A DNA stretch of 32,000 nucleotides from an uncultured bacterium (GTDB lineage Bacteria; Patescibacteriota; Gracilibacteria; UBA1369; PNNO01). Below are positions 4,983-26,300 of this stretch, in pieces (position 1 is the stretch's first letter; each line of letters opens with the position of its first letter). The stretch lies in the NCBI GenBank assembly GCA_963704705.1, contig OY969931.1, positions 1,342,546 to 1,374,545 on the forward strand, given 5' to 3'. The notes below the pieces were generated by a model that was not told where the DNA came from, did no database searches, and worked only from the letters and a program-made list of their open reading frames with translations. Position numbers and translations under genes: made by a program.

Positions 4983-5405
4983 ATGAGAATTCCACCAATT
5001 TTAAAGAACATGGCCTATCACATTTATGATCGTGGCATTGCAAAAAGAGTAATTTTTAAAATGCCTACAGATTATTTCTTTTTTATGTTAAAAATTGAAA
5101 AATATAAATTGAAATATAATATCGATATAACCAAATATTGTTTAATGCCTAACCATTTTCATTTTCTAATAAATGCAGGGTCAAAACCAAAAAAAATCTC
5201 AACATTTATGAAGTGCATAAAAACTTCATATGCTTATTTTTTTAACAAAAAATACAAACAATCTGGGCATGTATTCCAAGGCACCTTCCATGCCAATCCA
5301 ATAGTTTCAGTTAAACAAATGCATGATACAATCGAATATATTAAAAACAACCCAGTTAAAAAAGGCTTAATTGATAAAGCTGAAGATTGGCCATACTCAG
5401 GATAA
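4983..5405 (+). CDS. Y1 (HUH) transposase, IS200-like / REP-associated tyrosine transposase (RAYT) family
   Basis: 140 aa. HUH motif in CLMPNHFHFLI, catalytic-Tyr motif TIEYIKNNPVKKGL, C-terminal EDWPYSG. This mirrors the E. coli RayT pattern as I recall it (LPEHMHCIW / YIYINPVKHG / DWPFSTF). A GAGGA lies 13 nt upstream of the ATG. TAA stop. Confidence 0.85.
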   Translation: MRIPPILKNMAYHIYDRGIAKRVIFKMPTDYFFFMLKIEKYKLKYNIDITKYCLMPNHFHFLINAGSKPKKISTFMKCIKTSYAYFFNKKYKQSGHVFQGTFHANPIVSVKQMHDTIEYIKNNPVKKGLIDKAEDWPYSG

Positions 5406-5490: not shown

Positions 5491-5519
5491 AAAACTCCAA
5501 AATTTAACGCATTTAATTG

Positions 5520-6935
5520 ATGAAAGTTAATCCTAATATTTTTCGTGCATATGATATTAGAGGTATTGCACAAGCTACTGATAAATATCCAGATGTTGAT
5601 CTTACTGAAGAAACAGCATATTTAATTGGAAAAGGAGCAGGAACATATATCCAAAAAATAACAAAGCCAAATGCCAATCTTGTTGTCGGCCGGGATAACC
5701 GTCTTCATTCACCAAAACTTCAACAAGCATTCATTAAAGGCTTGCTCGAAGTTGGCTGCGATGTTACAGACATCGACATTTCACCTTCTCCAATGCTCTA
5801 TTATGCGGTTTGCAAATATGAGTTTGATGGGGGCGCGAACATTACGGCTTCACACAATCCAAAAGAATACAATGGAATAAAATTGGTTAGTCGGAATGCA
5901 CATTCTGTTTGTGGCGAAGATCTCCAGAAGGTTTTGAAAATTATTGAAGATGAAGATTATGCAAAAGGCGCTGAAGGTGAATATAAAGAGTTGAAAATTT
6001 TTGATGTTTATAAAAATGATTTAGCTTCTAAAGTTAAAATCGAGAAACCCCTTAAGGTTGTTGTTGATGCGGGGAATGGTACTGCAGGTGCCTTTGCTCC
6101 CGATTTACTGCGAACTTTAGGATGCGAAGTTACTGAGCTTTACTGTGAACTTGATGGCAATTTTCCGAATCACGAAGCCAATCCTGAAGAGTATGAAAAC
6201 ATGAAGGACCTGATTGCAAAAGTTAAAGAGGAGCATGCTGATTTGGGTTTGGGTTTTGATGGCGACGGTGATCGCGTTGGTGTTGTTGATGAAACCGGCC
6301 ATCATTATTCTGCTGATTTTTTATTGATGCTGCTTGCGCGGGATTTGCTTACACGTCAGCCAGGAGCAAAAATAGTTTTTGATGTAAAAGTTACAACCTC
6401 TTTAATCGAAGATATAAAAAAGCATGGAGGAGAGCCGATAATGTGCAAAACCGGACACTCTTTTATTGAAAGCAAAATGAAAGAAATTGGCGCGCCTTTA
6501 GCAGGAGAAGTAAGCGGGCATTTATTTTTTGCAGAAAATTATTATGGTTTTGATGATGCATTTTTGGGCGCTGCAAAGTTGCTCGAAATTTTATCAAAAA
6601 GTTCTGTGCCCTTTTCACGATTATTTGACGATGTCCCAAAAACCTATGCGACACCTGAATTTAAAGCGCATACTCCGGACGATAAAAAATTTAAAATCGT
6701 GCGCGAACTCACTGATTATTTTACAAAAAATTACGATTGTATCACTTTAGACGGAGTTCGTGTAAATTTCACTGACCGTGCTTGGGGCGCTATTCGCTGC
6801 TCAAACACATCGCCAAATTTAACTTTAAGATTTGAAGCTGATAGCAAAGAGAAGCTTTGTGAAATTCAAAAAAATATGGTGGAACAATTGCGCAAATACC
6901 CTGAGGTAAGCCTTGATTGGTATAAAGAATGTTAA
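5520..6935 (+). CDS. Phosphomannomutase/phosphoglucomutase (alpha-D-phosphohexomutase, ManB/AlgC-like)
   Basis: Active-site loop ITASHNPKEYNGIKL (Ser codon 5850-5852), metal-binding GFDGDGDR, sugar-binding GEVSGH, phosphate-binding RCSNTSPNLTLRFEA. The ORF track starts at TTG 5517; the adjacent ATG at 5520 is the more likely start. TAA stop. Confidence 0.9.
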   Translation: MKVNPNIFRAYDIRGIAQATDKYPDVDLTEETAYLIGKGAGTYIQKITKPNANLVVGRDNRLHSPKLQQAFIKGLLEVGCDVTDIDISPSPMLYYAVCKYEFDGGANITASHNPKEYNGIKLVSRNAHSVCGEDLQKVLKIIEDEDYAKGAEGEYKELKIFDVYKNDLASKVKIEKPLKVVVDAGNGTAGAFAPDLLRTLGCEVTELYCELDGNFPNHEANPEEYENMKDLIAKVKEEHADLGLGFDGDGDRVGVVDETGHHYSADFLLMLLARDLLTRQPGAKIVFDVKVTTSLIEDIKKHGGEPIMCKTGHSFIESKMKEIGAPLAGEVSGHLFFAENYYGFDDAFLGAAKLLEILSKSSVPFSRLFDDVPKTYATPEFKAHTPDDKKFKIVRELTDYFTKNYDCITLDGVRVNFTDRAWGAIRCSNTSPNLTLRFEADSKEKLCEIQKNMVEQLRKYPEVSLDWYKEC

Positions 6936-6938
6936 TTC

Positions 6939-6990
6939 ATATACTAAGTAAGTACCCCCTTACTTAGTATATACCCAGCTACTAAGTAAC
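6939..6990. repeat. REP-like hairpin plus a third core copy
   Basis: Perfect 14-bp stem, ATATACTAAGTAAG (6939-6952) pairing with CTTACTTAGTATAT (6959-6972), around loop TACCCC. A further CTACTAAGTAAC at 6979-6990 sits one base before the ATG at 6992. Confidence 0.85.
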
Positions 6991-6991
6991 T

Positions 6992-8611
6992 ATGCAACTA
7001 ATTTACAAACACAAATACTGGCGTTTGCTTGAGATGGTTCCAGGGCTTCTTGCCTGGGGGGCGCTGCTTATACCTGTTGTTGTGGCGATTTATCACCCAA
7101 TTTTAATTGCTGTTTTGGCTATTGTTTATGCGTTGCTTTGGCTTTTCAGATCAATTCGATTGAGCATAAATTTGTATAGGGGTTATTGGAGAACTCAGGA
7201 TGCAATGAAGGTGAACTGGAATTTTCTTCTCGATCTGGTTGAACATCCAGGAAAAATCGACCAGGCGGTTAGTGAAACTGACCTTAGCAAGCCTCTTTTA
7301 AGGCCACAAAAAATCTTCAATCTTGAACTTAAAAATCTAAAAAACAGATTAACGTGGCTAAATCAAAATGACCAAGAGCTTAAGCCCTCACAGATTCACC
7401 ATGCGATTTTAATAGTGACTTATAAAGAGTCGTATGAGCTGGTGAGGGAATCCGTTAAGTCATATGCGGAAAGTTTTTATCCTTATAAAAAAATGGTTTT
7501 GGTACTTGGAGGAGAGGAAGGCGACAAAGAAAATTTCGCGCAAATCTCAGAAAAAATCGAGAAAGAATTCGGAGACAAATTCAGCGCAATAATTAAGACG
7601 GTACATCCAAAAGGCATGCCAGGAGAAATCCCTGGCAAAAGCGCAAATGCAACATTTGCCGGTAAGGAATTAAAGCGATATCTCGACCACCATCACATCC
7701 CTTACGAGCATGTTATTTTATCAAATTTTGATGCTGACACTGTTGCGCATCCTGCTTATTTTAGTGAGCTTACTTTTAAATATTTGGTTACTAAAAATCG
7801 AACACAAAAAGCGTATCAGCCAACACACATGTTTCATAATAATATTTGGGATGTGCCTGTGATGATTCGTATGGTTGCTCTTTCTTGCACTTTCTGGCGC
7901 ATGTCAGAGGCACTTGATAAACATAAATATAAAAGTTTTTCTTCGCGTTCAATGGGCTTTCAAACAGTTATTGATACAAATTATTGGGATCCTTCTATTA
8001 TTCCTGAGGACTCGCGTCAGTTCTGGACAGCATTTTTGAAATACAACGGAAAGCATACTGTTAGCTGGATTTATACGCCTGTTTATATGGATGCTGTTTT
8101 GTCAGATAGTTATCTTGAGACTTTTAAAAGTCAGTATGTGCAATTAAGGCGCTGGGCATGGGGTGTTATGGATTTCCCGTTCATGGCGATCAACTTGGCA
8201 AGACATCCAAAAATAAAACTCAGCGAAAAAATATATAGAATTTTTTACTTTTTAGAGAATGCGTTTTTCTGGGCAACCGGTCCTTTGATTATTATGTTCG
8301 CGGGTTGGCTTCCTTCTATGATGAACGCTGATTTCCGTAATTCGGTTCTTGCATATAATTTACCAAATATAACCAGCCAGATTTTAACTGTTGCCGGAAT
8401 AGGTATAATCATGTGCGGAATTATAAGTCTTGTGATCGTACCCCGTCAGGTAAAACGCAGTCCGTGGGTACGAATTTCTCTATTTTTCCAGTGGCTTCTG
8501 GTGCCGATAACTTCAATTTTCCTTAGTGCGATTCCTGCTCTCGACGCTCAAACCCGCCTTCTTTTCGGCAAGCACCTCGAATACAAGGTTACGAAAAAAG
8601 CGAGGAAGTAA
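6992..8611 (+). CDS. Membrane-integrated processive family-2 glycosyltransferase (cellulose/chitin-synthase-like)
   Basis: 539 aa. N- and C-terminal hydrophobic helices flank a GT-A core with LIVTYKESYE, SNFDADT (DxD-like), EDSRQFW and the processive-synthase signature QLRRWAWG (8141-8164). TAA stop. Confidence 0.85.
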   Translation: MQLIYKHKYWRLLEMVPGLLAWGALLIPVVVAIYHPILIAVLAIVYALLWLFRSIRLSINLYRGYWRTQDAMKVNWNFLLDLVEHPGKIDQAVSETDLSKPLLRPQKIFNLELKNLKNRLTWLNQNDQELKPSQIHHAILIVTYKESYELVRESVKSYAESFYPYKKMVLVLGGEEGDKENFAQISEKIEKEFGDKFSAIIKTVHPKGMPGEIPGKSANATFAGKELKRYLDHHHIPYEHVILSNFDADTVAHPAYFSELTFKYLVTKNRTQKAYQPTHMFHNNIWDVPVMIRMVALSCTFWRMSEALDKHKYKSFSSRSMGFQTVIDTNYWDPSIIPEDSRQFWTAFLKYNGKHTVSWIYTPVYMDAVLSDSYLETFKSQYVQLRRWAWGVMDFPFMAINLARHPKIKLSEKIYRIFYFLENAFFWATGPLIIMFAGWLPSMMNADFRNSVLAYNLPNITSQILTVAGIGIIMCGIISLVIVPRQVKRSPWVRISLFFQWLLVPITSIFLSAIPALDAQTRLLFGKHLEYKVTKKARK

Positions 8612-9908: not shown

Positions 9909-10355
9909 TTATTTTCGTTTAAGTACTCGGGCAATGTCAAGATTTTGAGCTTTCTTTTTCAAATCCGCCCGTTTGTCGTAGAGTTTTTTTCCTTTAACAA
10001 GTGCGATTTTTAATTTAAGGAGCCCGCCTTTTGTATAAAGTTCAAGGGGTACGCAAGTTACTCCCTGCTCGTTTAATTTGGTTTCGATTTTGCTGATTTC
10101 TTTTTCATTAAGAAGAAGTTTTCTGTTTCTGTATGGATCTGCGTTATTTTTTCCTGCCATTTTATATGGCGAGATATGCGCTTTTTCAAGCCAAATTTCG
10201 TGCTTTGAACTTATGGAAATATAGCTGCCTTTTAAGTTAAGATTTCCTGTTCGGCAAGATTTTACTTCAGGGCCGATAAGCTGAATTCCCGCCTCAAAAC
10301 TTTCGAGAATTTCATAGTCGTGGAATGCCTTTTTGTTTTTTGAGAGAGTTGTCAT
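9909..10355 (-). CDS. smpB: SsrA-binding protein SmpB
   Basis: 148 aa starting at ATG 10355: MTTLSKNKKAFHDYEILESFEAGIQLIGPEVKSCR...NRKLLLNEKEI...KGKKLYDKR, colinear with canonical SmpB. The 345-aa ORF in the track (9909-10946) is this gene plus a spurious antisense read-through into the high-GC gene. Confidence 0.92.
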   Translation of the reverse strand: MTTLSKNKKAFHDYEILESFEAGIQLIGPEVKSCRTGNLNLKGSYISISSKHEIWLEKAHISPYKMAGKNNADPYRNRKLLLNEKEISKIETKLNEQGVTCVPLELYTKGGLLKLKIALVKGKKLYDKRADLKKKAQNLDIARVLKRK

Positions 10356-10465
10356 ATACGGTTGTAAGTTTAGGTGTTTTTGAAGATTTAAATCAAGAGG
10401 AATATTGGGGTTGTAAAATATGTCACTTATGGCATAATAGCAATCCCAGCTTTGCTTGGAACAAG

Positions 10466-10489
10466 CAATGAGCAAAGCTTTGCTCATTG
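10466..10489. promoter_or_regulatory. Perfect 24-bp palindrome in the divergent smpB / high-GC-gene intergenic region
   Basis: CAATGAGCAAAG|CTTTGCTCATTG is exactly self-complementary. It is flanked by a second small hairpin, TTGCTTG-gaa-CAAGCAA (10452-10468), and by a duplicated AGCTTTGCT (10448-10456 and 10477-10485). Function unknown (operator, or a recombination scar). Confidence 0.4.
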
Positions 10490-10541
10490 AAAAAATACGG
10501 CCAAAAAACCAAAACGAAGGAAGAAAAAAGGAGCGATTTAG

Positions 10542-13202
<2,661 letters not shown>

Positions 13203-13307: not shown

Positions 13308-13336
13308 TTTACCCAAAATCGTTTTTCTGGTATAAT
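13308..13336 (+). promoter_or_regulatory. Putative promoter with extended -10 for the giant-gene operon
   Basis: -35 TTTACC (13308-13313), 17-nt spacer ending in TGg, perfect -10 TATAAT (13331-13336). It lies 36 nt upstream of the ATG at 13373. Motif match only. Confidence 0.4.
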
Positions 13337-13372: not shown

Positions 13373-16300
13373 ATGCGGACTTCAAATAATTGGCTTGAAA
13401 AGCGAAAAAACAGAGAACGTTTACTTGCCAGAACCCAAAACATCGCGATTGGCAGTTTAATAGCGGCTATAACCATTGGCCCGCTTATTTATTTTGCCGC
13501 AGTCGCAGTTCCAATCGAAATAAGAGAAGCGCGAAATGTTCAATTGACTGAAGAATCAGCGGCTACTCCTGAGATTGCAATTGAAATTCCGGCTACTCCG
13601 GAAATATCACTAAGTGAGAAACCAATTAAATTTCCTGAGCCCGTTAAAGAAATTAAAAAAATAGAAAATCCGAAAGTTGAATTTAAATTGTCAGATCTTC
13701 CTAAAGAAAACCAACAAAAAGAAATTGTTTCAACAGGTAAATCAGAATCGGCTGAAGCAAAATTTATAGATACTCTTAAAACAGAATTTAAAGATCAGGA
13801 GAAAGATGTCCAGATTAAAGTAACTAACAAACAAGTTGATGGGCAAAATGAAAAATTGGTAGTTATGGAGAATCTCGATATTGATGACGGACCACGACAA
13901 ATCCGAAAAACAGAAGATGCTGACACAGTTGCCAGAGCAGCGTTGAGAAAATATTTAAAAACAAATCCAAAAGAAGTTGATTTTGATATATACACCGATA
14001 CAAGCAAACTTACAAATTCAAAGAAAACATATCAGCTCGTTGTTTCTGATATAAAAACAAACAACGGAAAATGGTATGTAACATTCGAGCAATACAAAAA
14101 TGCACTTCCTGTTTTTGATGGAAATATAAAAATGATTTTTACGGAAAGAAAAAATTTAATTGCAATAACTGACAATATCAGAACTGACTTCCCGGAAATT
14201 GAGGACTTCTCAATCACAAATTCAGAAGCTTCAGGAGCCATACAAGATGTTTTCACGCAATGGGATGAAGGCGTAGATAAAATTGGATTTGTAAACAAGG
14301 GATATTATAAAAACAAACCAGCTTTCAAAATTGAATTGGAAAGTCATAATCCATTAGGAAATTTTGAAGTTCTTGTGGACGGATCAAACGGTGATATTGA
14401 GAATGTTAAGGGAGATATAAGGCTTGCTGATGAAACAGGTTATACAACAGAAGAGCTTGAAGGACTGCGTGCTGGAAATCCTTTACCTTACAACCCCGTA
14501 GTTGATAAAGTGGACCCCGTTCTTTACGATGTAGGTGAACGCAAACCTGAAGAAGAAAATCAAGTTTATCCTTCAGTTGAAGAACTGGATCAAATAAAAA
14601 TAAATGCAGAAAATACAGCGCTTCAACAGGAATTAATTGCAAATCCAGTAAATCCTGAAGCTCCACAACTGGAATTACAGAGAAGCGAAATTTTCCAAAA
14701 AATAATTGCACCGGTTTATGCCGAAGAGAAATTCCAGGTTCCTGAACAGCAAATTACAGGGCCTTCAATCGGAGTAATTCAGGAATTTTCTGCTACAGGC
14801 GATGCTGCGGCAACTCCTGATGTAGGGGCCACTCTTGAACCTGACATTGTAATTCTTGATACAATTTTCAGTCAGGTTTTAGGAAAAATTTATCCTCAAA
14901 CTCCGGATCAGGAACCAATAATTACACCTTTTGCCAACGCTTATACATTTTTCAGCCAGAAACAAAATATTACAGATGAAGGAGGATATTTTGAAAATAA
15001 AGATTTGGACTGGTACAGCGTATATCTCGATGGTCCATATGTGACTGTTTATGATGATGACGCCAGTTCGGATGCGGAAATCAAAGATCGCACGCCTGAA
15101 GACCCTTTTGTTTGGGATGAAAACAGTGCGAGTCTCGCAGCAATAAATGCGTTCTATCATACAAATGAAATGCATAAATATTTTGCTGATAAATTTAATT
15201 TCGATACAAATAAAAAAATTCCGGTTACTGTAAATTCCGAACTTGTTGATCAATATTTAAATGGTTGCGGTGCATGGTTTGATAATTCTGATAAATCCAT
15301 TGAAATGGGTCGCGGCGGTACCGATACCTGCCCTGAAGATTTGAATTATGCACTTTCTAGTGATTTTGTTTATCATGAATATACACACTTTGTAGTTGAA
15401 GAAATAACACATCTTCCAAATATTACAGGGGCTGAATCCGCAGCAATGGGTGAAGGACTTGCGGATTATTTTGCTGCATCTGCTAATAATGACCCTGTAT
15501 GGGGTGATGTGGTTGCCCCTAATGATACCAGGAATTTAAAAAATACTTTAAATTATAATTATGATCTTAATGGTGAATCTCATCATGATGGACAAATTTT
15601 TGCAGGAGCATTATGGGATTTAAGAACTTTGATTGGCCCTATTGAAGCTGACAAATTGGTATTTAACACTTTATATCAAGATAGACTGCATTTTGAAACC
15701 TTCATGTATGGAATGCTTATAGAAGATGATGATAACAATGATTTTTCTGATGGGACACCTCACATGCTTGAGATTTTAGCTGCATTTGAAAATCATGGAA
15801 TCGGACCAGGAATAGCTAACTTTGATGGGCTTCCTGTTGATCCTGAAGCCTGGACAGATTTGCTAGGTGAAGAAGCGCCTCAGGGACAGGAAGATTCAAT
15901 ATTAAACGCTATAAGTGCAGGGTGCGAGGGCTATGATGATGGCACTTCAATAGTAATCCCTGATAATGTCACCTGTACTTTTACTGGATCCGGAAGTCGT
16001 TCAATAATTTATTTAGCGGGTGGTGCTGATCTTTATATCGGAGATTCATCTACTTACGGGATTCTCTCAACTAGCGGCGATACCAGTATTTATGGAACAA
16101 CAGCAATATCATCATTAAGAATCGGATGGTATAGTGGTGTTTATGGCCGCTTAACAGTTGGCGATGAATTGTTCTTAATTAATGGCGGTTGGCTGTATTC
16201 GGGATATGACGGATCAAATTTTGCAAATGCAAATACATATCTTCATGTTACAGGCAGTACGCAAATATATAAACAATCCACCAGTTATACTTCAAGCAAC

Positions 16301-19300
16301 TTTGTTTCCATTTATAATGATGCAACAAGTGATAATAATTTGGGTGTTTTATATATAGGAAGAAGTGACACTTCTACTTCATTTTACGGAAACCAGAGTT
16401 ATTTTTACAATGGAGGTTCGGCAAGAACAAATGTCGACTATTTCAGACTGGATAATGGCGGCTATATAAATAATTATACAAACTTTTATGTGACTACTAG
16501 TAATTCGGATATTTTGAACGGGTCAATTATGTATAACCGAAGTAGTGCTATTTTCAATAACGCTGGATACACGACTTATGTCTGGGACGACTCTCTTTTT
16601 GATAATGACGGGACTGTAAACAGCAATAGTTTTGACTTCCGTGATTCAGCTGAATTAAATATGGATGGCGGCACAATTAATGGAACCACCGCTATTTTCT
16701 ACAATACTTCATGGCTGGATTTGAATGCCGGAACATTTAATGTAACAACAGCAACATATAACAATTCTACAAATGCGGATGTTGCAGGAGGTGATTTTAG
16801 TCCAACAACTGCAAATTTTTATACCACTTCTTATGTAAACCATTATACTGGCGGCAGTACTCATATTACCAGTTTAAACCTATACAACAGTAGTTTCTGG
16901 AACCATTACGGAGGAACTACCAGTATTGGCAACTTTAATATGAATGATACAAGCTATGCCAGGGCTAATACCAGCGGCCAAACACTAACAGCTACTTCAT
17001 TTAATCTGTATGATTCGGCTGTACTTGAAAAGGCTTATTACTCCGCAGCTTCAAATGGTGATGGAAATATTTCCGCAACTAATATCTGGCTACAGGGTAC
17101 TTCCAGCCTGGACATTTTGCGATCAACGGGTAGTGTAACTGCTTCCGGTACAATAACTGTTGATGACGACAGTCAATATTATCAGTCTACAGGTAGCACT
17201 ACAGCATCTTATTTTAGTGTAGTAGGTACGACTCAAACAACGCAGAGTGGCGAATTGTATTTGACGGGCGGTACTTTAACTGTAAGTACAAGATTATTAA
17301 TAAATGAAAACGGTTGGGTTAATCAAGACGGAGGTACGGTTGATGCCGTACTTGGCCAACTTAATAGTAATGCCGCTATATACGACCAGGATGGCGGTAC
17401 AGCGGATTTTGACACGCTCCGGATGTACTTAAATAGTCATTATCAAAATGACAGTGCGGTAATTATAAGAGTAGGAGGCGGAAACATGACTGATACTTCG
17501 GTCTTTGAAAATAATTATACTGCTGGAGGTACAGCAACGGTGACAATACCTTCAGGTTTAACAGGCCAACAATCATTCTTATTAGACACTTCCGCACATT
17601 TCTACAATAGATATGGGGGAAGTTTCACTACAGATACAAGCGGATCATCAAACGGGGATACTATCGACGTAATAGACTCATCAACTTTTGATAATTACGG
17701 AACATTAACCACTTATAATTTAAGAATAGGATGGAACGACGTAGATAAAACCCAAATAGGAGGCTTTTATCACAACTTATACACTACTTATGAAAGTAAG
17801 ACGAACGTACATGGCGATTTAATAATGTACAGAGGTTATATGAGTAATGATGCAGGCAGCACAACTGCATATGGGGTAGTTGTGAGTGGGAATGTAAATA
17901 TGAAAGGTTACTGGCAAGGAACAATATGTGACAATTCTGATTTAGAAAATAGTGGATTATTCTCTGTCAGTGGAAATATTACAATGACCAGTAGTACCCT
18001 GACCCCTGCTTACACCTGTACAGAAATCAACAACTTTGCCAATGCTTCGACTTTACATAAGTTTTCTGCAGCTAATATTACGTCTACATACGACTATTCT
18101 GACATAACAAATGCAGGCGATTTTTATGTTACAACTGGTTCAATAAACATGACTTCTACACATGCATTCTTTCAGAATTCTTCTAGTGGTTATGTTTCGG
18201 TATATGATGACTTTATTATAGATTCAACAGGTGCATATGCAGTTTATCTTGATAATTCCGGAGATTTTAATGTTGGAATTTCAACAACAAGTAGTCTCCA
18301 AGTAGCGGGAAATTCATATGTTGATAATAATTCGGGAGGGACTATAAATGTTGATGATGCTGCAACTACAAGTACAACCAGGGGGCAATTTACAATTTAT
18401 CAAGATGGTTCTTTGGTCAATGAAGGAGATGTAAGTGCAAATCTATTCTGGGTGGATAGTGGCGGAGGAACATCTGTAACGGGATTTGAAAATCAAAATG
18501 GGGGCACTATAACTTCAACATATAGCGGCAGTGCAACCTACGGAATGAAGTGTATTTACGCAATATGCCAACATAAAAATACTGCGACGAGTTTAACGGT
18601 GGCAAGTGGATTGTTGGTACAAAGTGATTTAAGTTATATTACGAATTTTATAGTCGGAGCACCAGCAAATATAAATAATGCTTATATTAACTGGAACAGT
18701 ATGGTAACCATTAATTCTAACGCCACTTTAACAGCATCTGGCCAATGGCAGGTTTTAGATGATCAAAATGCCACAATTCCTGATTATGACGGACAAATAG
18801 TCGTTACGTCAGGATCGACCTTTAATGGGGGATCTTCTGCAAACGTATACTTAGGAGGGCCAGCTAATACGGGCGGAGAAATTGACAATTCAGGATCTTT
18901 TTATGCTAACAATTTGACACTTTATGATAGTAGCCTATTTACCAACCAAAGCACTGGAGATGTCGGAATCTCAAATACATTGCAGCTCGCATATGAATTT
19001 ACGCCATCTGCATTTATTAGAAGTTATGAAAATTATGGTTCTACCGAAGCTACTTATTTGCAAGTATACGGAGATAATTCAATATTTAATTCGGATGGAA
19101 CTTCAGCTCAAATTTATATTAACAATGATTTGGACATTAATGGAGGCAAACTCACTGTTGCCAGCGGATCAGTAGGCGCAACAATTGATGGTAATGCTTA
19201 TATTTATTACAAAAACGGTTCAACAACTTCAGGCGAGCTTTATAATTTTGATAATAGCTTTGTTGTTGCAGGAAAAATGTACGTGTCAGGTTTTGTACAA

Positions 19301-22300
19301 AATGGTAATAGTTTATTTGGTGCCGCAATGGAAATCCGAAGCAATACAGGCTCAGAAGATTTATATGTACATAGAGGCGTATCTGCCGATGGATACGGTA
19401 AATTCCTCAATTCTGGCGCTACCCTAACGGTTGGTGATGCTTCCGGAGGAGAAATTAAAGTAGAAGGAATTCAAAATATTTCTTTACCTGGCTCTTACTA
19501 TATTGCTTTATTCCAAAATTCAGAGGGGGCTATACACAGAGCAGGCCATGTTAATACTGATGAAATGTATATAAAAACCGCAGCGGATTTACTCAATTAC
19601 ACCGACCTTAATGTAAACAATAAATTATGGACAGGCGAGGACGAGTCGCCAAAAACCGTTACCAACTATGCAACTGGCGATATCGACGTAATAGGTGATG
19701 GTGATTCATGGTTTTATAACAATTCAACAGTAACAAATAGCGGCACATTCGATGCAACCGGAACATCCGGCATCATGAAAGTAATGCAAACTGTACAAAC
19801 AACCACCTTGGATAACTACGGCACTCTTTCTACTGATAAACTTTGGAATGGTAGTTCTGCTGAATACTATGGAGGTACAACCAGCAATCTCACATCAGGA
19901 ACTATTACCGTCAACGACAGTACCTCAGATACAGCACAAAACTACGGTGGAACAATAATACAAAACTCAAGCGGTTCAATAGATATCAGTTCGGGCCGCT
20001 TTACCACAACAAGTAATTCCGGCTCGTATGTAGGAACTGTTACTCAAAATTCTGGTACAGGTGAAATTAAATTGGGCGAATTATATATTACAAATTATGG
20101 ATATTATGAAATTAGCGGTTCAAATACCGATCCCGGAACTCATGTTTATGATACCGTATCCAGTGGAAACCTGGCCATTTCGGGAACAACTTCCGAACTT
20201 TATATTAATGGTTCGCAGGTATACGTAGATGGTGCATCTAACATTTATGCAAATGGAACCCTTACAAACAATGCACTTAGAGTTTCAGGGTCAGGTGGTT
20301 TTGTTTCTGATGGTTTGACAACCGTTTATTCAGGCGGTTTATTAAACTCAGATAATGATTCCACATGCCTGTTTAATAGCGGATTAACAGTCCAGGGAGA
20401 AGCAAACATCCTTGATGATGCAACGATAATCGGAAATTTAATTATTGATTTAGGCGGACTTGTTAATTTTGGTTTCCAAAGTCCGGTAATTCCAAACGTA
20501 GGTGCGATATATGTATCAGGTTATCTGTATATGTATGGTTCCAATACGGTATTGAACAATAATAGCCAGTTTGCTGTAAACACATTTGGAACTTTTGGAT
20601 CAAGCACAGGCACTCAAACTGCAACTTTCAACAATAACGGTTATACCGACGTTTCGAACAGTTCTTTTGCAGCATTTGGCAATGACATTAATGTACAAAA
20701 AACAGGTATCATTAATAGTGATGGCCCTTTAACCACGGGCGACAATATGATTGTCAGTTCTGGCGGAACAGTGAATTTAAATGATAATGCGGCCAGTCCA
20801 GATGACTATTGCCAAACTTGGATAGGCAATGACGGCACAGGAAATTTAACAATTAATCAGGATGGCACAGATATAGGTAAAGTGACTGTAAATTGTACAA
20901 GAACAACTAGTTCCGCTGAACTGACCGTATTTAGTAATACCTATGTATATGGCGAACTTGAATTAAACTCGGGAATGCTAACCCAAAACATGATAATAGG
21001 TGAACCAAGCGCCGCTTATACTGGCTCTGTATATCATAAACCTATAGTTGACCTTATAGGCGACAATGCTCCGGATATTGTATTTTTACTAACTATTACT
21101 CATGATTTAACCATAAATCCTGAAGGTGAAATTAACGTTAGTGCTTTATCATATATTAAGCCTTCATCAACTCATCCATATGCAGGTGTATTCGGAGGCA
21201 AAGGTCAGTATTCAAGTGCAACAGGAATTACTGAATATGGAACCATTGAAACCGGTTCAGTAAATTTTGGACGAGCAGGAGAAGATGCTGACCGTGATTT
21301 AGGTGCCGGAGGAGGTAAAGCTCAGGTAGTTGTTGGAAACGACGCAGTTGTAAACGGACCGATAAATGCGGACGGAGAAAGTGTAAAGCCAAATTTTGAT
21401 GTTGGCGGCGGAACAACTTATGATTGCGCAGGAAGCGGCGGAAGCGTATTCCTTACTATAGGTGGAGCCTTGAGCGGAAGCGGAGATATTACTGCAAGAG
21501 GCGGCGACTCAACTCCTGATATTTCAGGAGGCACAGCTGTTGCAATGGCTGGTGGTGGTGGTCGTATATATATAGAATATTATGATAAATCAGCTTATAC
21601 CGGTAAAGTAAAAGCAAATGGCGGTGCTGCCGACAGAGATACTTCATCTGGCGGACTAAACCTATATCACGCCGGAACAGGTACTGTTTTCTATAAATGG
21701 ACAGATCCATGGGCAAATGAAAATGACGGTACACTTGTAATAGATCCGGATGGTTCTTGGGCTGATATAGATTTCAGTGGTACCGGAACTTTAATAGATG
21801 CGACTACATTGGCAAATCTAACCGATAAATATTTAGATGTTGAAAGTGTTCAAATTGAACCTTACGGAAGTCTGCACCTGCCAGGTACCAATTGTGCGGG
21901 TGGAACCTGTTCAAAATTACAACAATGTTTAAAGGCAACTCCTGCTTCATTCTTTTTGGATACATTAGGAGAAGTTTTATATAACAGAGACCATGGAAGT
22001 GGAACTATAAAAAGCGTATGTATTGCTACACCGGATCCTCCTTATAAATTATTTATCAATGACCCTGGAACAGGAGCCCAAAGCGCAATTAACGCCAAAG
22101 AAGGTGACCCTATTGCAACATTGTTTAGCCTTGTTCCTAAGTTCTCGGCTATACATTTTGATGGACGCTTTGACAGTACAGGTACTTATGCGGATGCAAG
22201 TCCTCATCAGGCAACTCATTATGAGATACAAATAGCTGACACTGACGCGACTTATCCAACAAGCCCTCAATATTTATTTGATGATAATGCAACGCATATA

Positions 22301-23326
22301 ATTTGTGATATTGATGATACTGCATTGGTAGCTGATACCGATAGCGGCAACAGAGTTGCTGATCTGCAAATTCCTTATGCTGGCTGCGGTGAATATTTAA
22401 CTGCAAATGAAAATTATTTTTACAGAGTAAGATTTAAAGAATACGATCCTGCAAACAGTCCTTATTGGGGCTTATGGAGTCAGACAAACTGGTTTGAACT
22501 TGGCGAAGGCGGAACAATTGATTTGGCAAATTGCGGCTCAGCCGACCTCAATTATGATACTCAGACAGGTGGCAACTTCACAATTGGCAATACTTTAACT
22601 GATTCTACCAGTGGTGCTACAGGAACAATAATTGCAGATGTCGATAATGGAACCGATGGTACTTTAACTATTCATATCACCTCAGGCACCTTTAGCAGCG
22701 GTGATACAATTACCGATGGCACTGCCAGTGCAACAGTCTCAAATAATCCATCTTATAAATTAAATATAGGGCCTTATGATTCATCAACAGGAGATAATTT
22801 CTTCGCAGATTATTGTAATTTTAATACAGAAGCTACAGTAACCATGCACATCAAAGCAACTAAAGATGACTTGTTGTCTGACGAAAGCGACCCTTATAAT
22901 AAAATCAGGGATATGATTGATGAAGAAAGTGATAGTTTGCCTGATATGGACGGAACTACTGTTGGCGGAGTAATAACAAATGAAAGTGGTTTCTACTTAA
23001 GCAATGTTAATACTAGTGAATTCACGGTTGGTGAATTTAACATCTTTGGGGATAAATATACAGATTACTGGTCGAACTTACCTCCTAACTCGCCATCATC
23101 AAATACAGTTCTTACAAGTTCGGGAGGTTATTTAAATGAATCGTTCACGTTTAATTTAGGTGCATTTATCCATGGATTAATACCTCACCCAACAGATCCG
23201 ATTAATAATGATCCGGCAGGAACTGCATGTAATGGAAACCCACTCAATTTGATTTATAACAACTGCGTTTCTTTAAGCGGTAATTATTCAATGATTTTAA
23301 CCTTAACCGCTTCAACAACTCCTTAA
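13373..23326 (+). CDS. Giant (3317 aa) membrane-anchored surface protein with an M36/M4-type metalloprotease head, a ~1700-aa beta-solenoid-like repeat region, a Gly-rich cassette and C-terminal modules
   Basis: Uninterrupted 9.95-kb ORF. Basic N-terminus plus one TM helix (IAIGSLIAAITIGPLIYFAAVAV, aa 24-46). FTP/PepSY-like propeptide (WYVTFEQYKNALPVFDGNIKMIF). HEYTH zinc motif (15374-15388) with a downstream MGEGLADYFA glutamate and ESHHDGQIFAGALWDL. The rest is N/T/S/G/Y-rich degenerate repeats. TAA stop. Confidence 0.92.
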   Translation: MRTSNNWLEKRKNRERLLARTQNIAIGSLIAAITIGPLIYFAAVAVPIEIREARNVQLTEESAATPEIAIEIPATPEISLSEKPIKFPEPVKEIKKIENPKVEFKLSDLPKENQQKEIVSTGKSESAEAKFIDTLKTEFKDQEKDVQIKVTNKQVDGQNEKLVVMENLDIDDGPRQIRKTEDADTVARAALRKYLKTNPKEVDFDIYTDTSKLTNSKKTYQLVVSDIKTNNGKWYVTFEQYKNALPVFDGNIKMIFTERKNLIAITDNIRTDFPEIEDFSITNSEASGAIQDVFTQWDEGVDKIGFVNKGYYKNKPAFKIELESHNPLGNFEVLVDGSNGDIENVKGDIRLADETGYTTEELEGLRAGNPLPYNPVVDKVDPVLYDVGERKPEEENQVYPSVEELDQIKINAENTALQQELIANPVNPEAPQLELQRSEIFQKIIAPVYAEEKFQVPEQQITGPSIGVIQEFSATGDAAATPDVGATLEPDIVILDTIFSQVLGKIYPQTPDQEPIITPFANAYTFFSQKQNITDEGGYFENKDLDWYSVYLDGPYVTVYDDDASSDAEIKDRTPEDPFVWDENSASLAAINAFYHTNEMHKYFADKFNFDTNKKIPVTVNSELVDQYLNGCGAWFDNSDKSIEMGRGGTDTCPEDLNYALSSDFVYHEYTHFVVEEITHLPNITGAESAAMGEGLADYFAASANNDPVWGDVVAPNDTRNLKNTLNYNYDLNGESHHDGQIFAGALWDLRTLIGPIEADKLVFNTLYQDRLHFETFMYGMLIEDDDNNDFSDGTPHMLEILAAFENHGIGPGIANFDGLPVDPEAWTDLLGEEAPQGQEDSILNAISAGCEGYDDGTSIVIPDNVTCTFTGSGSRSIIYLAGGADLYIGDSSTYGILSTSGDTSIYGTTAISSLRIGWYSGVYGRLTVGDELFLINGGWLYSGYDGSNFANANTYLHVTGSTQIYKQSTSYTSSNFVSIYNDATSDNNLGVLYIGRSDTSTSFYGNQSYFYNGGSARTNVDYFRLDNGGYINNYTNFYVTTSNSDILNGSIMYNRSSAIFNNAGYTTYVWDDSLFDNDGTVNSNSFDFRDSAELNMDGGTINGTTAIFYNTSWLDLNAGTFNVTTATYNNSTNADVAGGDFSPTTANFYTTSYVNHYTGGSTHITSLNLYNSSFWNHYGGTTSIGNFNMNDTSYARANTSGQTLTATSFNLYDSAVLEKAYYSAASNGDGNISATNIWLQGTSSLDILRSTGSVTASGTITVDDDSQYYQSTGSTTASYFSVVGTTQTTQSGELYLTGGTLTVSTRLLINENGWVNQDGGTVDAVLGQLNSNAAIYDQDGGTADFDTLRMYLNSHYQNDSAVIIRVGGGNMTDTSVFENNYTAGGTATVTIPSGLTGQQSFLLDTSAHFYNRYGGSFTTDTSGSSNGDTIDVIDSSTFDNYGTLTTYNLRIGWNDVDKTQIGGFYHNLYTTYESKTNVHGDLIMYRGYMSNDAGSTTAYGVVVSGNVNMKGYWQGTICDNSDLENSGLFSVSGNITMTSSTLTPAYTCTEINNFANASTLHKFSAANITSTYDYSDITNAGDFYVTTGSINMTSTHAFFQNSSSGYVSVYDDFIIDSTGAYAVYLDNSGDFNVGISTTSSLQVAGNSYVDNNSGGTINVDDAATTSTTRGQFTIYQDGSLVNEGDVSANLFWVDSGGGTSVTGFENQNGGTITSTYSGSATYGMKCIYAICQHKNTATSLTVASGLLVQSDLSYITNFIVGAPANINNAYINWNSMVTINSNATLTASGQWQVLDDQNATIPDYDGQIVVTSGSTFNGGSSANVYLGGPANTGGEIDNSGSFYANNLTLYDSSLFTNQSTGDVGISNTLQLAYEFTPSAFIRSYENYGSTEATYLQVYGDNSIFNSDGTSAQIYINNDLDINGGKLTVASGSVGATIDGNAYIYYKNGSTTSGELYNFDNSFVVAGKMYVSGFVQNGNSLFGAAMEIRSNTGSEDLYVHRGVSADGYGKFLNSGATLTVGDASGGEIKVEGIQNISLPGSYYIALFQNSEGAIHRAGHVNTDEMYIKTAADLLNYTDLNVNNKLWTGEDESPKTVTNYATGDIDVIGDGDSWFYNNSTVTNSGTFDATGTSGIMKVMQTVQTTTLDNYGTLSTDKLWNGSSAEYYGGTTSNLTSGTITVNDSTSDTAQNYGGTIIQNSSGSIDISSGRFTTTSNSGSYVGTVTQNSGTGEIKLGELYITNYGYYEISGSNTDPGTHVYDTVSSGNLAISGTTSELYINGSQVYVDGASNIYANGTLTNNALRVSGSGGFVSDGLTTVYSGGLLNSDNDSTCLFNSGLTVQGEANILDDATIIGNLIIDLGGLVNFGFQSPVIPNVGAIYVSGYLYMYGSNTVLNNNSQFAVNTFGTFGSSTGTQTATFNNNGYTDVSNSSFAAFGNDINVQKTGIINSDGPLTTGDNMIVSSGGTVNLNDNAASPDDYCQTWIGNDGTGNLTINQDGTDIGKVTVNCTRTTSSAELTVFSNTYVYGELELNSGMLTQNMIIGEPSAAYTGSVYHKPIVDLIGDNAPDIVFLLTITHDLTINPEGEINVSALSYIKPSSTHPYAGVFGGKGQYSSATGITEYGTIETGSVNFGRAGEDADRDLGAGGGKAQVVVGNDAVVNGPINADGESVKPNFDVGGGTTYDCAGSGGSVFLTIGGALSGSGDITARGGDSTPDISGGTAVAMAGGGGRIYIEYYDKSAYTGKVKANGGAADRDTSSGGLNLYHAGTGTVFYKWTDPWANENDGTLVIDPDGSWADIDFSGTGTLIDATTLANLTDKYLDVESVQIEPYGSLHLPGTNCAGGTCSKLQQCLKATPASFFLDTLGEVLYNRDHGSGTIKSVCIATPDPPYKLFINDPGTGAQSAINAKEGDPIATLFSLVPKFSAIHFDGRFDSTGTYADASPHQATHYEIQIADTDATYPTSPQYLFDDNATHIICDIDDTALVADTDSGNRVADLQIPYAGCGEYLTANENYFYRVRFKEYDPANSPYWGLWSQTNWFELGEGGTIDLANCGSADLNYDTQTGGNFTIGNTLTDSTSGATGTIIADVDNGTDGTLTIHITSGTFSSGDTITDGTASATVSNNPSYKLNIGPYDSSTGDNFFADYCNFNTEATVTMHIKATKDDLLSDESDPYNKIRDMIDEESDSLPDMDGTTVGGVITNESGFYLSNVNTSEFTVGEFNIFGDKYTDYWSNLPPNSPSSNTVLTSSGGYLNESFTFNLGAFIHGLIPHPTDPINNDPAGTACNGNPLNLIYNNCVSLSGNYSMILTLTASTTP
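14885..15808 (+). other. Fungalysin/thermolysin-like (gluzincin) peptidase domain within giant gene 1
   Basis: Motif series: INAFYHTNEMHKYFADKFNF, VYHEYTHFVVEE (HExxH), AAMGEGLADYFA (third zinc ligand Glu, codon 15452-15454), GESHHDGQIFAGALWDL. Their order and spacing match the M36 (fungalysin) and M4 families as I recall them. Confidence 0.7.
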
Positions 23327-23333
23327 ATATATT

Positions 23334-26300
23334 ATGGTAAAAAAACAAACACAAAAATTCAGCCTAAATCTTACACTTCTAACAATGATATTAAGCATTG
23401 CACTATATGCAATTTTAATATTGATGCCGGGCGTGCAAGCTGTTGATGTGCCTGCGGATGCTGAAGTTGGCGACCCTGATTGCTTCTGGTCTAATGGGCC
23501 AGGCTCTGAACTTTATGTGCCTAGCGGAAAGACTTGTACGATCGACTTTGACATAACAGCAACGAATGTTGCTGGCTGGACCGACTATGCAGTAATAGTT
23601 TATTCAGGTGGTACTTTAGAAGTTGTCGGCAATGGTTCAGACACCAAGCTCGATATTGATGGTGATATATATATAATGGGAACAGTAAATATTGGTGACA
23701 CAAATTCATCAAGCGTTATAAATTTCAGAACAATTAACGGCGGAGATTTAACTCTTGGAAATAATGCCACTGCTTCAATGACAGTAAGAGATAACTCAGG
23801 GGCAGGAACAAATCGTGTGGCTGTTACCGGTACCACTTATGTTGGAGATAGTTCGCAACCCAACACTCCAACCTTAACAATAAACTCAACATACCCTTTA
23901 ACTTCTTTTGAAAAAATTGATATTTACGGGCACATGAATGTGAACGGAGGCACAACAACTGCCTCGGGAATTGAATTGATGGACCTGGATAGCAATTCTG
24001 CCGAACTAAACATTGCAACAGGGGCAATTGTAACTATCGATAGTTTCTTCTCCCCTCCGCCCGGCCATCCATTTAATGGGTATGATATTTCACTTGGCCT
24101 CGGAATGTGGGCACATGCAGGTACAACAACCGTAACAGTCAACGGTACTTTAAATGCGCCTACTTCTGGAGGCGATGTATCAGTGATAGTGGGATCAAAC
24201 ATAGGCGCAAGCCATGCTAAGCTGGTTGTCGGTTCAACCGGAACAGCTAATTTCCAGGAAACAAACACATTCGCAATCCCTGACACTCTTACCGGCCCAA
24301 CTAATGCATTGTGGATATTAAGCGATATGCCTTATGGGCTTGAAGTTCAGGGCGCAGTTAACTCTTATATGTTTATACGGAACAATGGTTACATACATAT
24401 AACCGGAGGCAGCGGCTGGGTTGGCGGGAACAACAGTTATCAACAGGCTTCAGCCTTAAAAGTGGGCGATGGTGATACTTTAAATATAACAGGTATGGCG
24501 GATATTGATGGTGATTCTGTAATTGATGGGACATTAAACGTGACCCGCTGTACAAAAATAACAAATGATGCAACATCAACTTTCAGTGTAGGCTCGACCG
24601 GAACATTCAATACAAACACTGCTGGCACAGGTTGTACGCTGGCAAATACCAGCTCAAATGACGGCTTGAATGTTCAGGGTACAGATACAGTATTAAATAT
24701 TGCGAACGGTTCTGGCGGAGCAGGTGACCAAACTGTATTTATTAATTATGGCGACTTTAGAGTTGATGACGGCGGGACAGTTGATGCAAACGGATATTAC
24801 ACTGTTGAAGACGACATGATTGTTGAAGGCGGTTCAAATGTTTCAATGCAGGATACCGATATAGGTGATAATTTTAAAGCGGATAATGTTCTTGTTAATC
24901 CGGATTCTGGTGGTGCTAGTTCGGCCTTATCTATTGAAGCTAGTTCGGCGTTTGATTTGGTAGTCGGGCAGGTTGATATTGGAACAACTGCAAGTGCCGG
25001 AACAGGAGGAATAACCGTTCATGGAACACTTAATGTGCCAACATCGTCAACTTATAATTTTAAAGTATCCGACACGGGCCAGCTGGTAATTGAAGCCGGC
25101 GGAAAAGTTAACGATGATGCTTCAAGCGGCCAATTCTTAATTGAAGGCGGGGTAGTGGTCGTACGAGGAGCTTCCGGTAATCCGGGACTGCTTTATATCG
25201 CTGATCAGGAACTTCAAATGAGTAATGGCTCGACAACGGCATCTTTAATCATAGGTGATGCAAGTAATGAATATGGTGTATTAAACAGCGAAGCAACTCC
25301 TGCTGCTGCTCCTGGATTTGATTTCCAGGATGGTGTTTTGGATATTCAATATCATAGCGAAGCGACTTTTAATGATACTGTTGAGCTGTTAACCGGAGAC
25401 GAGATGTATATCGGCGGATATCTTAGAGGAACCGATGGTGTAAAGATAAGCTGCGATTCTGCAACTGTTATCGAATGTGAAGTTGAAGATTCGGGTGAAA
25501 TTAAAGTTGAAGGGTCAGGAACACCAACTATTAATGTATTGGATGATCTAAATCTTGTTGGAAAATTAAATGGTAATGATGGCGCTGGCGATGTTTCTAT
25601 AACAAACAATTCTACTATCTCAAGCAGGTCAATTAATGGTGAAGATTCATATTTTTATATAATTGCAAATAATTTAACTATAGGAACCGGTTCTTCTATT
25701 GATGTTTCGGAATTTGCCAGATGTATCAGTCCGGGCGGAACTCCAACTTACGGAGGAAGTTTTGGTGGTGAAGGTATGGGCGGCAACACAGAAACTTTCG
25801 GGGAAGCAAAATATACAACACCACCAAATTATGCAACAAGTTCTCCAAATCCTATTGGAATGTGTGGTTATAATAGTTTTGGAGAAAATGCTGGATTTGG
25901 AGGCGGTGCGGTTTATATAGATGCTTATAATATTATTGATATTAGTGGTCCTATACTTGCAAATGGTGAGGATTTTCCTGGTAATGATGCCGGTTCAGGT
26001 TCCGGCGGACTAATAGTTATTAATCATAATATTACACATTCTGATACTTCCGCTGATTTTAAAGGAGCTGCAAACATTGAGGCGGATGGCGGGAATGGTT
26101 CAGGTACAAGCAACAGTTATGGTGGCGGCGGCGGAAGAATTGTGATTAATTCAATATTATTCGAACAACCTGATGACGATGAAACAGGGCCTCCTCACTA
26201 TGCATATGAAGGCGGCATTTATGCAAATGGCGGAGGAACAAGCGGTTATACAGGCGATTACGCTGCAGCTGGTACAATTGTATTCCTTGGTGACGACAAC

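Follow-up and report, generated by a model that had tools for sequence, protein, structure and literature searches.

Why would a zinc metalloprotease form the head of a giant, otherwise anonymous protein in a Candidate Phyla Radiation (CPR; Patescibacteria) bacterium? The question is raised by a stretch of 32,000 nucleotides (hereafter the window) from an uncultured bacterium (GTDB lineage Patescibacteriota; Gracilibacteria; UBA1369; PNNO01), corresponding to positions 1,342,546 to 1,374,545 of the forward strand of contig OY969931.1 (GenBank assembly GCA_963704705.1). It contains an intact open reading frame (ORF) with an ATG start, gene 1 (13373..23326, plus strand; 3,317 aa), which an original prediction from the sequence had read as a signal-anchored, fungalysin-like metalloprotease fused to the base of a long fibre. 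We consider it reasonably probable that gene 1 encodes an exported surface zymogen of a thermolysin-fold zinc endopeptidase, carried on a ~2,450-aa beta-rich extension that ends in FN3/Ig-like modules, and that it acts as a protease-armed adhesin.

Architecture of gene 1 and its conservation

The reading frame and the start of gene 1 are genuine, the N-terminus being kept from residue 1 onwards across eight orthologues. A hydropathy scan, the amino acid composition and domain matches showed the order of parts that had been proposed: a basic N-terminus, a hydrophobic segment, an acidic spacer, an FTP/PepSY pro-region, a variable disordered linker, the catalytic domain and the extension (Table 1). 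The positions assigned to the motifs HEYTH, MGEGLADYFA and HHDGQIFAGALWDL (aa 737-750) were likewise all correct. The spacer holds 18-22 P/E/K residues per 50 across aa 51-150, and the G/S/T/N content climbs from about 13 to 22-24 per 50 residues near aa ~850.

The eight further full-length orthologues, all Patescibacteria/Peregrinibacteria-like (2,416-3,498 aa; P0014-P0020 among them), carry the head in the same place with 57-73% head identity, and they keep the order of the parts, the catalytic residues and the N-terminal basic-plus-hydrophobic segment. One orthologue, MFC1599893.1, comes from a Patescibacteria single-cell genome (SAG AM-312-L06), and another relative lies on a contig of a Candidatus Peregrinibacteria metagenome-assembled genome. 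In the related locus L003, tblastn matches to gene 1 are collinear along its whole length. The fusion of protease and tail is thus real, and its architecture is conserved. The homologue is split into adjacent called genes of 444, 230 and 2100 aa in the related locus L002 (8656-17003), and of 354, 516 and 1248 aa in a third locus, L001 (4539-10941). Reassignment of a stop codon was considered for these two loci and rejected, as the pieces lie in different reading frames and the breaks are therefore frameshifts; these could be assembly errors or real decay.

A thermolysin-fold catalytic domain with an intact active site

Alignments of 13, 62 and 21 sequences show no variation at H668, E669, H672 and E694, and none or almost none at D698 and H737. 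We take H737 to be the counterpart of the His that stabilises the transition state in M4 and M36 enzymes.

Profile searches gave scores close to the Pfam cut-offs. Peptidase_M36 (PF02128; cut-off 23.3 bits) reached 23.5-23.7 bits on the isolated domain, its match being confined to 48 residues about HExxH; on the 860-aa head it scored 19.3 bits, below that cut-off, and a scan of the whole protein gave no PF02128 match and only a sub-threshold FTP match. Peptidase_M4 (PF01447) reached 17.9-21 bits on gene 1 (20.9-21 on the isolated domain) against a cut-off of 22.4, whereas the M4 C-terminal model PF02868 had no match to gene 1, PepSY (PF03413) had no direct Pfam match on gene 1, and phmmer with the gene 1 head against PDB sequences found nothing. 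For the families named in the original prediction these direct scores, viewed by themselves, would be borderline: M36 lies just above its cut-off on the isolated domain, M4 and FTP lie just below theirs, and PepSY is not matched directly. Homologues were searched with aa 501-830 as query, the 860-aa head having been swamped by low-complexity words and having returned one match. With 5.8 billion sequences in the database, this query led phmmer to PF02128-carrying proteins at E = 1.4e-14, well outside what chance would give. The exhaustive search gathered 3,740 cluster representatives with E <= 1e-3, of which 1,257 had E <= 1e-10.

The head (aa 180-860) was modelled with AlphaFold from an alignment of 62 sequences. 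The predicted local distance difference test (pLDDT) values are ~85-98 over the catalytic lobes (aa ~590-810; catalytic lobe ~90), and predicted helices carry the HExxH motif (model residues 484-500) and the Glu ligand (model residues 508-526). The best Foldseek match in the PDB was aureolysin (1bqb; E = 1e-8, template-modelling score 0.62, root-mean-square deviation 2.8 Å, 257 columns); further matches included the M36 structures 7z6t, 4k90, 7qp3 and 7qfy, thermolysin (4tln) and the M4 peptidase PlM4P, with a probability of 1.00 for aureolysin, thermolysin, PlM4P and the four M36 structures. The model and these matches agree on a two-lobe thermolysin-like gluzincin fold. The intact conserved active site, the homologues and the predicted fold all speak for the thermolysin/fungalysin-type metalloprotease that had been proposed and, judged by sequence and model, the head is a thermolysin-fold gluzincin zymogen with a complete catalytic apparatus.

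Placement between families M4 and M36

The label "fungalysin-like" holds for the local motifs, as HEYTH, GEGxxD and HxDGQ/E-I resemble M36, and single-sequence searches with gene 1 reach M36-annotated proteins first. It does not hold for the clade as a whole. A profile of 21 trimmed catalytic domains from gene 1's own clade, unlike the single-sequence searches, was closer to M4 when compared with the PDB (M4 neutral protease 2.1e-15, aureolysin 2.6e-14, thermolysin 5.9e-13, M36 Mep 4.8e-9). Taken one by one, the same 21 members are divided between the Pfam models, with 14 matching PF02128 at E <= 0.01, 11 matching M4 and eight matching M4_C. The Glu ligand follows the second His at a spacing of 22 residues in gene 1, which presumably falls between the values of M4 and M36. 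Because the clade profile favours M4, the members are split and the local motifs are M36-like, the protease is, on its sequence, best filed in a divergent clade between MEROPS families M4 and M36 and not as a clean fungalysin.

Pro-region and linker

FTP (PF07504) matched gene 1 at aa 223-265 with 16.5-20.1 bits against a cut-off of 21, inside the interval (13925-14182) in which a propeptide had been placed. At the equivalent position, three relatives exceed the Pfam cut-offs, namely P0024 with both FTP (32.8) and PepSY (31.2), P0025 with FTP (27.6) and P0127 with FTP (25.3). The AlphaFold model has a pLDDT of ~70-87 over aa 180-350, and Foldseek matched this region to the vibriolysin MCP-02 propeptide (3nqz_A), the fungalysin propeptide (4k90_B), the PepSY domains of YpeB (5boi) and YpmB. 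The scores of the relatives and the structural matches to propeptides agree with the original prediction, and the weight of evidence is in favour of an FTP/PepSY zymogen pro-region. The linker that follows has a pLDDT of 27-47, with disorder predicted over aa ~350-500, and the start of the catalytic domain varies between aa 373 and 480 across the orthologues.

The N-terminal segment

In all of gene 1 there is only one hydrophobic segment (aa ~23-47, Kyte-Doolittle > 1.6), and an acidic stretch comes after it. Across nine orthologues the N-terminal flank of this segment carries a charge of +5 to +7 and the C-terminal flank 0 to -5. Following the positive-inside rule, the N-terminus would stay in the cytoplasm and the remainder would be exported through Sec, so that the head would be extracytoplasmic after a single N-in segment, as had been proposed. 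The orthologues share the N-terminal consensus M-G/R-x4-W-L-x2-R-...-G-G/S-x-I-A-A-x-I-x-G-P-L-I-Y-F, the basic part of which reads M-G/R-x4-W-L-x2-R-x5-L/I. Gene 1 has the kept GPLIYF core followed by the small-x-small motif A43-V44-A45, and in most orthologues variants of this motif (AVA, VVA, AIA, VIA or VCA) close the hydrophobic segment. The original prediction had seen no cleavage site here; the conserved motif at the end of the segment speaks against this and leaves room for signal-peptide cleavage.

The C-terminal extension and its counterparts among relatives

The tail of gene 1 offers few recognisable features. Overlapping 600-800-aa tiles of the fibre and of the downstream genes 2 and 3, scanned against Pfam and NCBIfam, yielded nothing beyond noise and a weak Ig_Rha78A_N match. 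In the gene 1 fibre, Tandem Repeats Finder detected no tandem arrays and BLOSUM autocorrelation no periodicity, with no peak above z = 2.7. The last 778 residues (aa 2540-3317) were modelled from a 10-row alignment with a mean pLDDT of 69. The model is all-beta, with ~330 residues of short strands with Gly-rich turns followed by sandwich modules, and Foldseek matched the latter to FN3/Ig-like domains in the PDB and in viral proteins; it gave no beta-helix match over aa 2540-3317. Gene 1 ends in the conserved sequence ...TLTASTTP. The solenoid assumed in the original prediction is no more than plausible, the composition of the tail (47% G+S+T+N) being compatible with it.

A ~50-aa mini-module, GNTLTDSTSGATGTIIADVDNGTDGTLTIHITSGTFSSGDTITDG, occurs in the C-terminal region of gene 1 (22586-22750, aa ~3072-3126) and of P0018. 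P0014 (aa 1791) and P0015 (aa 2266, more similar copies lying close by) carry related copies within the central part of the fibre, and the other orthologues lack it. It has no family match and looks like a mobile insert module.

Enzymes of this type had been described as normally small, free proteases. This is not the case in the clade of gene 1, where long C-terminal extensions are the rule. Among the 146 best cluster representatives from the exhaustive search, the median number of residues after the catalytic domain is 504; 74 exceed 500, 26 exceed 1,000 and only 16 fall below 150. The tails of relatives include FG-GAP repeats, PKD, carbohydrate-binding-like and C-terminal domains of the type IX secretion system (T9SS), and there are many bacterial M36 proteins that have extra domains and reach 850-1,140 aa. 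Specific to the subfamily of gene 1 are the conserved anchor-like N-terminus, the nearest outgroups (P0024-P0026) having ordinary signal peptides; the long and variable linker between pro-region and enzyme; and a tail of such length and so little identity. The literature searches did not turn up any description of the family.

Proposed function and alternative explanations

In the working that we propose, the ~130-aa acidic spacer would carry the pro-region and the protease past the cell wall. In M4 and M36 enzymes the FTP/PepSY pro-region chaperones and inhibits its enzyme, and the enzyme removes the pro-region itself. The pro-region of gene 1 would similarly aid folding, inhibit the enzyme and be cut off autocatalytically in the linker at aa 351-495. 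Because it lies between anchor and enzyme, canonical autoprocessing would cut the protease together with the fibre from the anchor, and not the fibre from the protease, a point that the original prediction had overlooked. Such a cut would sever the sole covalent link to the membrane, after which the mature protease-plus-fibre would either be released or stay bound by non-covalent contacts. The extension, with the sandwich modules at its end, would serve as an adhesin or spacer that brings the protease to the surface of a partner or host, or to extracellular protein, where it may supply peptides to an amino-acid-auxotrophic symbiont or remodel its contact site. A role in attachment to the host has been suggested for giant surface proteins in CPR epibionts (PMC8080830), and Peribacteria have large extracellular proteins, some of them cysteine-rich, with amino acids inferred to come from external protein (PMC4736985).

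Several observations weigh against this proposal. The Pfam scores of gene 1 are marginal, with the PF02128 model matched over 48 residues only; the fibre has no repeat periodicity to back a regular solenoid; the conserved small-x-small motif after the hydrophobic segment would fit a cleaved signal peptide; and the homologue is broken by frame changes in two relatives (L001 and L002). The idea of a host surface as target, moreover, derives from the lifestyle of related organisms and not from the sequence of gene 1. That the head might be no active enzyme but a protease-derived module with a structural or binding role at the fibre's base could be argued from the divergence of the domain, its Pfam scores and the unusually long linker between pro-region and enzyme. 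Pseudo-enzymes normally lose catalytic residues, however, and the zinc ligands and catalytic residues are invariant across the orthologues and in 21-62 relatives; since every catalytic residue is kept, we set the pseudo-protease aside as very improbable. More serious, though still doubtful in our view, is the explanation that the N-terminal segment is a cleavable long Sec signal peptide, as in many Gram-positive-type organisms, and no membrane anchor. The gene 1 product would then be released, or other contacts would keep it in the wall or S-layer, and the protease would be merely the N-terminal domain of a secreted giant protein. The position of the small-x-small motif right after the hydrophobic core in most orthologues agrees with this, as do the long hydrophobic regions (18-23 residues) in the signal peptides with which genes 2 and 3 start. 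The next-closest relatives P0024-P0026, too, have signal peptides of the ordinary kind, with A-Q-D/E at the end. Yet the 22-residue basic n-region and the GPLIYF core are kept although the heads share only 57-73% identity, which is unusual for a disposable signal peptide and so speaks against cleavage. In addition, genes 2 and 3 have a helix-breaking P-G at -6/-5, whereas gene 1 has none near the motif (G-P at -10/-9), and a Pro at +2 is conserved in the gene 1 orthologues.

An explanation of another kind, which we regard as unlikely, is that the protease is mainly a maturation device whose substrates are the polypeptide to which it belongs and the fibre proteins encoded alongside (genes 2 and 3, or the upstream Cys-rich protein); it would trim these or build them into a surface structure, and would not act on foreign protein. 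The order of the Cys-rich protein, gene 1 and gene 2 is conserved, the spacers between genes 1, 2 and 3 are of 6-7 nt, C-terminal modules of gene 1 are present in gene 2, and self-processing of M4/M36 enzymes is established knowledge. Giant Omnitrophota proteins, furthermore, have been proposed to be cut by their own N-terminal C39 and S8 domains (bioRxiv 10.1101/2023.11.21.568195). Against maturation, the same catalytic module is found on hundreds of unrelated C-terminal extensions (FG-GAP, PKD and T9SS-type among others), so that a general-purpose secreted protease fits better than a dedicated processing enzyme, and no candidate cleavage motif common to genes 1-3 was found. Thermolysin-type enzymes also have broad specificity. 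Within the adhesin proposal itself, we see a slender chance that the anchored FTP/PepSY pro-region stays in place after autocleavage as dock and inhibitor, holding the protease-plus-fibre non-covalently until contact with a partner releases or activates it. This arrangement can be likened to YpeB holding SleB and to the complexes with the pro-domain in crystals of MCP-02 and Mep. If true, it would be a fibre tipped with a protease, deployable under the control of a latch and specific to Peregrinibacteria-like symbionts, and would explain the strong conservation of the N-terminal cytoplasmic stretch and the transmembrane core.

Comparison with known systems

Fungalysin of family M36 (A. fumigatus Mep, 4K90) shares with gene 1 the HEYTH motif, the third ligand in G-E-G-x-x-D, the motif H-x-D-G-Q/E-I-F/W and, probably, an FTP-type propeptide N-terminal to the catalytic domain. 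The Foldseek matches to the M36 structures 7z6t, 4k90, 7qp3 and 7qfy have E = 5e-8 to 7e-7, and the propeptide chain 4k90_B is also matched. However, identity to the solved enzymes is only 16-17%, and gene 1 differs by a disordered linker of ~145 aa between pro-region and enzyme, an anchor and spacer upstream, and 2,450 aa downstream. Family M4, to which thermolysin, aureolysin (1BQB) and Bacillus neutral protease (1NPC) belong, provides the best structural match (aureolysin) and the best profile-to-PDB E-values, and the pro-region probably combines FTP and PepSY as in vibriolysin MCP-02 (3NQY/3NQZ), whereas the motifs near the third zinc ligand and the catalytic His look M36-like. M4 enzymes usually bear at most small C-terminal PPC/PKD domains.

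The succession of propeptide, catalytic domain and long C-terminal extension is shared with multi-domain bacterial M36 proteins, such as NF038112 (myxosortase-dependent; a model of 1,604 positions), MepA (MXAN_3564) and the M36 proteins of Acidobacteria/Pyrinomonadaceae with BACON-type tails. The NCBIfam model NF038112 gave a weak match over the gene 1 pro-region (E = 3e-5). MepA is an extracellular M36 protease of the predator Myxococcus xanthus with a surface- or vesicle-associated role (PMC4158809). In these proteins many hundreds of residues follow the catalytic domain, the signal peptides are of the ordinary kind, and the tails contain either domains that can be recognised or a sorting signal at the C-terminus. 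Gene 1, by contrast, has a conserved anchor-like N-terminus and lacks a C-terminal sorting signal, and its tail, in which no known domains occur, is longer by a factor of two to three.

Peptidase modules are also present in much larger proteins. An M36 domain lies within a 36,805-aa protein of the Chlorochromatium epibiont, and N-terminal C39 or S8 domains are carried by the giant "archaeovorins" of Omnitrophota, the roles proposed for such proteins being self-cleavage or attack on the partner surface (bioRxiv 10.1101/2023.11.21.568195). Gene 1 resembles them in that a protease module is embedded in an extracellular protein of great length and scant annotation, in a bacterium that is ultra-small or episymbiotic. 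The giants differ in peptidase family (C39, S8) or in the position of the module, exceed gene 1 in length by 10-25 times, and contain SecA-like domains and numerous transmembrane segments, features that are absent from gene 1. Finally, Bacillus YpeB (5BOI; Foldseek E = 5e-5) has an N-terminal membrane segment followed by PepSY-type domains, as is probable for gene 1. YpeB keeps the lytic enzyme SleB in check at the membrane, and is a precedent for a tethered pro-domain that serves as a dock. YpeB and its enzyme are, however, separate polypeptides, and the enzyme is a peptidoglycan lytic transglycosylase and not a protease.

Genomic context

Genes 2 and 3 follow gene 1 on the same strand (Table 1). 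As had been predicted, they lack the protease head, having no HExxH, and start with ordinary signal peptides. Both had been taken for paralogs of gene 1. For gene 2, aa 559-1197 resemble aa 2337-3043 of gene 1 (24% identity, E = 7e-10); gene 3 has a composition similar to genes 1 and 2, but blastp and phmmer detect no similarity of it to either, and sequence similarity thus does not support gene 3 as a paralog. The signal peptides of genes 2 and 3 (23334-23441 and 27471-27560) both end in L-M-P-G-x-x-A, and the C-termini of genes 1 and 2 (23290-23323 and 27430-27461) both end in ...[ST]-[DT]-T-P; these shared terminal motifs might mark a common step of export or assembly. Gene 2 is probably co-transcribed with gene 1. 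A counterpart of gene 2 follows the gene 1 orthologue in L003, with a weak fragment match in L002, and the order of the Cys-rich DUF4215 protein, gene 1 and gene 2 is conserved in both loci. In L001 the Cys-rich gene is also upstream of the gene 1 homologue, with a MazE/PIN toxin-antitoxin pair between them.

The Cys-rich gene has homologues at 5679-8348 in L003, 5796-8465 in L002 and ~1025-3534 in L001. Its G+C content (GC) is 51-62%, and 70-73% at third codon positions (GC3), compared with a GC of 38% and a GC3 of 26% in the adjoining gene 1. The excess is also present in the orthologues of three diverged relatives (protein identity 27-53%), and a recent horizontal transfer was rejected as its cause, as the high GC is common to diverged orthologues. 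Peribacteria genomes, with 58.5% GC and many Cys-rich proteins, are a possible lead (PMC4736985). Four myxo_disulf_rpt repeats match in the protein, and its tail (13101-13199, aa 854-885) consists of GCSVAGGSSGN, a hydrophobic helix and RIRRRK, with a MYXO-CTERM score of 18.8 bits against a cut-off of 20. This is a C-terminal sorting signal of myxobacterial type, below the cut-off, in a Patescibacteria genome.

The surrounding genes in the window are bacterial housekeeping genes, such as those for topoisomerase I, phosphoglucomutase, NAD synthase and SmpB. An IS200-like Y1 transposase (4983-5405) lies at the edge of a block formed by phosphoglucomutase and a 539-aa ORF (5517-8611). The block is on the plus strand here, but in the two syntenic loci, L002 and L003, it lies on the minus strand with its order reversed, which points to a local inversion beside the insertion sequence. 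The SmpB ORF (9909-10946, minus strand; 345 aa) has its SmpB domain only at aa 202-343, and the N-terminal extension before it runs antisense over ~400 nt at the start of the Cys-rich gene. The extension also matches in L003, where it is probably a mirror of the conserved gene on the opposite strand, and the true start of SmpB is likely downstream of the called one. The ORFs at 2206-4851 (881 aa) and 6992-8611 (539 aa) have no Pfam/NCBIfam match and are kept in L002 and L003 with 34-80% identity.

Table 1 Features of gene 1 and neighbouring genes in the window
Feature	Residues	Position	Strand	Remarks
Exported Cys-rich repeat protein (DUF4215 / myxo_disulf_rpt), MYXO-CTERM-like tail	886 aa	10542..13202	+	Anomalously high GC; conserved upstream neighbour
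Promoter-like site TTTACC-17-TATAAT, TG-extended		13308..13336	+	Consensus match only; 36 nt upstream of gene 1 ATG
Gene 1, basic N-terminal stretch	aa 1-22	13373..13438	+	Net charge +5; probably cytoplasmic
Gene 1, hydrophobic segment NIAIGSLIAAITIGPLIYFAAVAVP	aa 23-47	13439..13513	+	Signal anchor or long signal-peptide h-region
Gene 1, acidic P/E/K-rich spacer	aa 48-179	13514..13909	+	ATPEI-type motifs; putative wall-spanning linker
Gene 1, FTP plus PepSY-like pro-region	aa 180-350	13910..14422	+	Near-cut-off FTP match, Pfam matches of relatives, Foldseek
Gene 1, low-confidence linker from pro-region to catalytic domain	aa 351-495	14423..14857	+	Variable length; candidate autoprocessing site
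Gene 1, small beta pre-domain and thermolysin-fold catalytic domain	aa 496-830	14858..15862	+	M4/M36-like gluzincin
Gene 1, HEYTH	aa 668-672	15374..15388	+	Zinc ligands H668 and H672, catalytic E669; invariant in all alignments
Gene 1, E694 in MGEGLADYFA (aa 692-701)	aa 694	15452..15454	+	Third zinc ligand; invariant
Gene 1, H737 in SHHDGQIF	aa 737	15581..15583	+	Aligns with conserved His of fungalysin VHAIG motif; invariant or nearly
Gene 1, G/S/T/N-rich (47%) extension ("fibre")	aa 831-2870	15863..21982	+	K/R/E/P-poor; last ~330 aa modelled as short beta strands with Gly-rich turns
Gene 1, C-terminal all-beta FN3/Ig-like sandwich modules and stop codon	aa 2871-3317	21983..23326	+	Kept in orthologues, partly in gene 2
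Gene 2	1,376 aa	23334..27464	+	7 nt after gene 1; signal peptide ends LMPGVQA
Gene 3	more than 1,509 aa	27471..32000	+	6 nt after gene 2; runs off the window; signal peptide ends LMPGALA

Implications

Gene 1 represents a multi-domain secreted thermolysin-fold protease in an extreme, probably N-terminally tethered and CPR-specific form, and involves no new principle; because long tails are common on such proteases, the fusion is not a new kind of system. Its interest lies in the organisms that carry it. Patescibacteria depend on other cells and have almost no surface machinery with an assignable activity, and gene 1 offers, in a giant surface protein that is conserved, a single enzymatic function that can be clearly predicted, with E669A and H668A as clear point mutants. 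It would therefore give a practical way into how CPR bacteria feed on or remodel the surface of their partners. It also poses the question of how a zymogen is retained after activation when the pro-domain separates the anchor from the enzyme. More broadly, gene 1 draws attention to a very large uncharacterised clade of thermolysin-fold proteins between M4 and M36, comprising thousands of clusters, whose typically long C-terminal extensions correct the picture of such enzymes as small free proteases.

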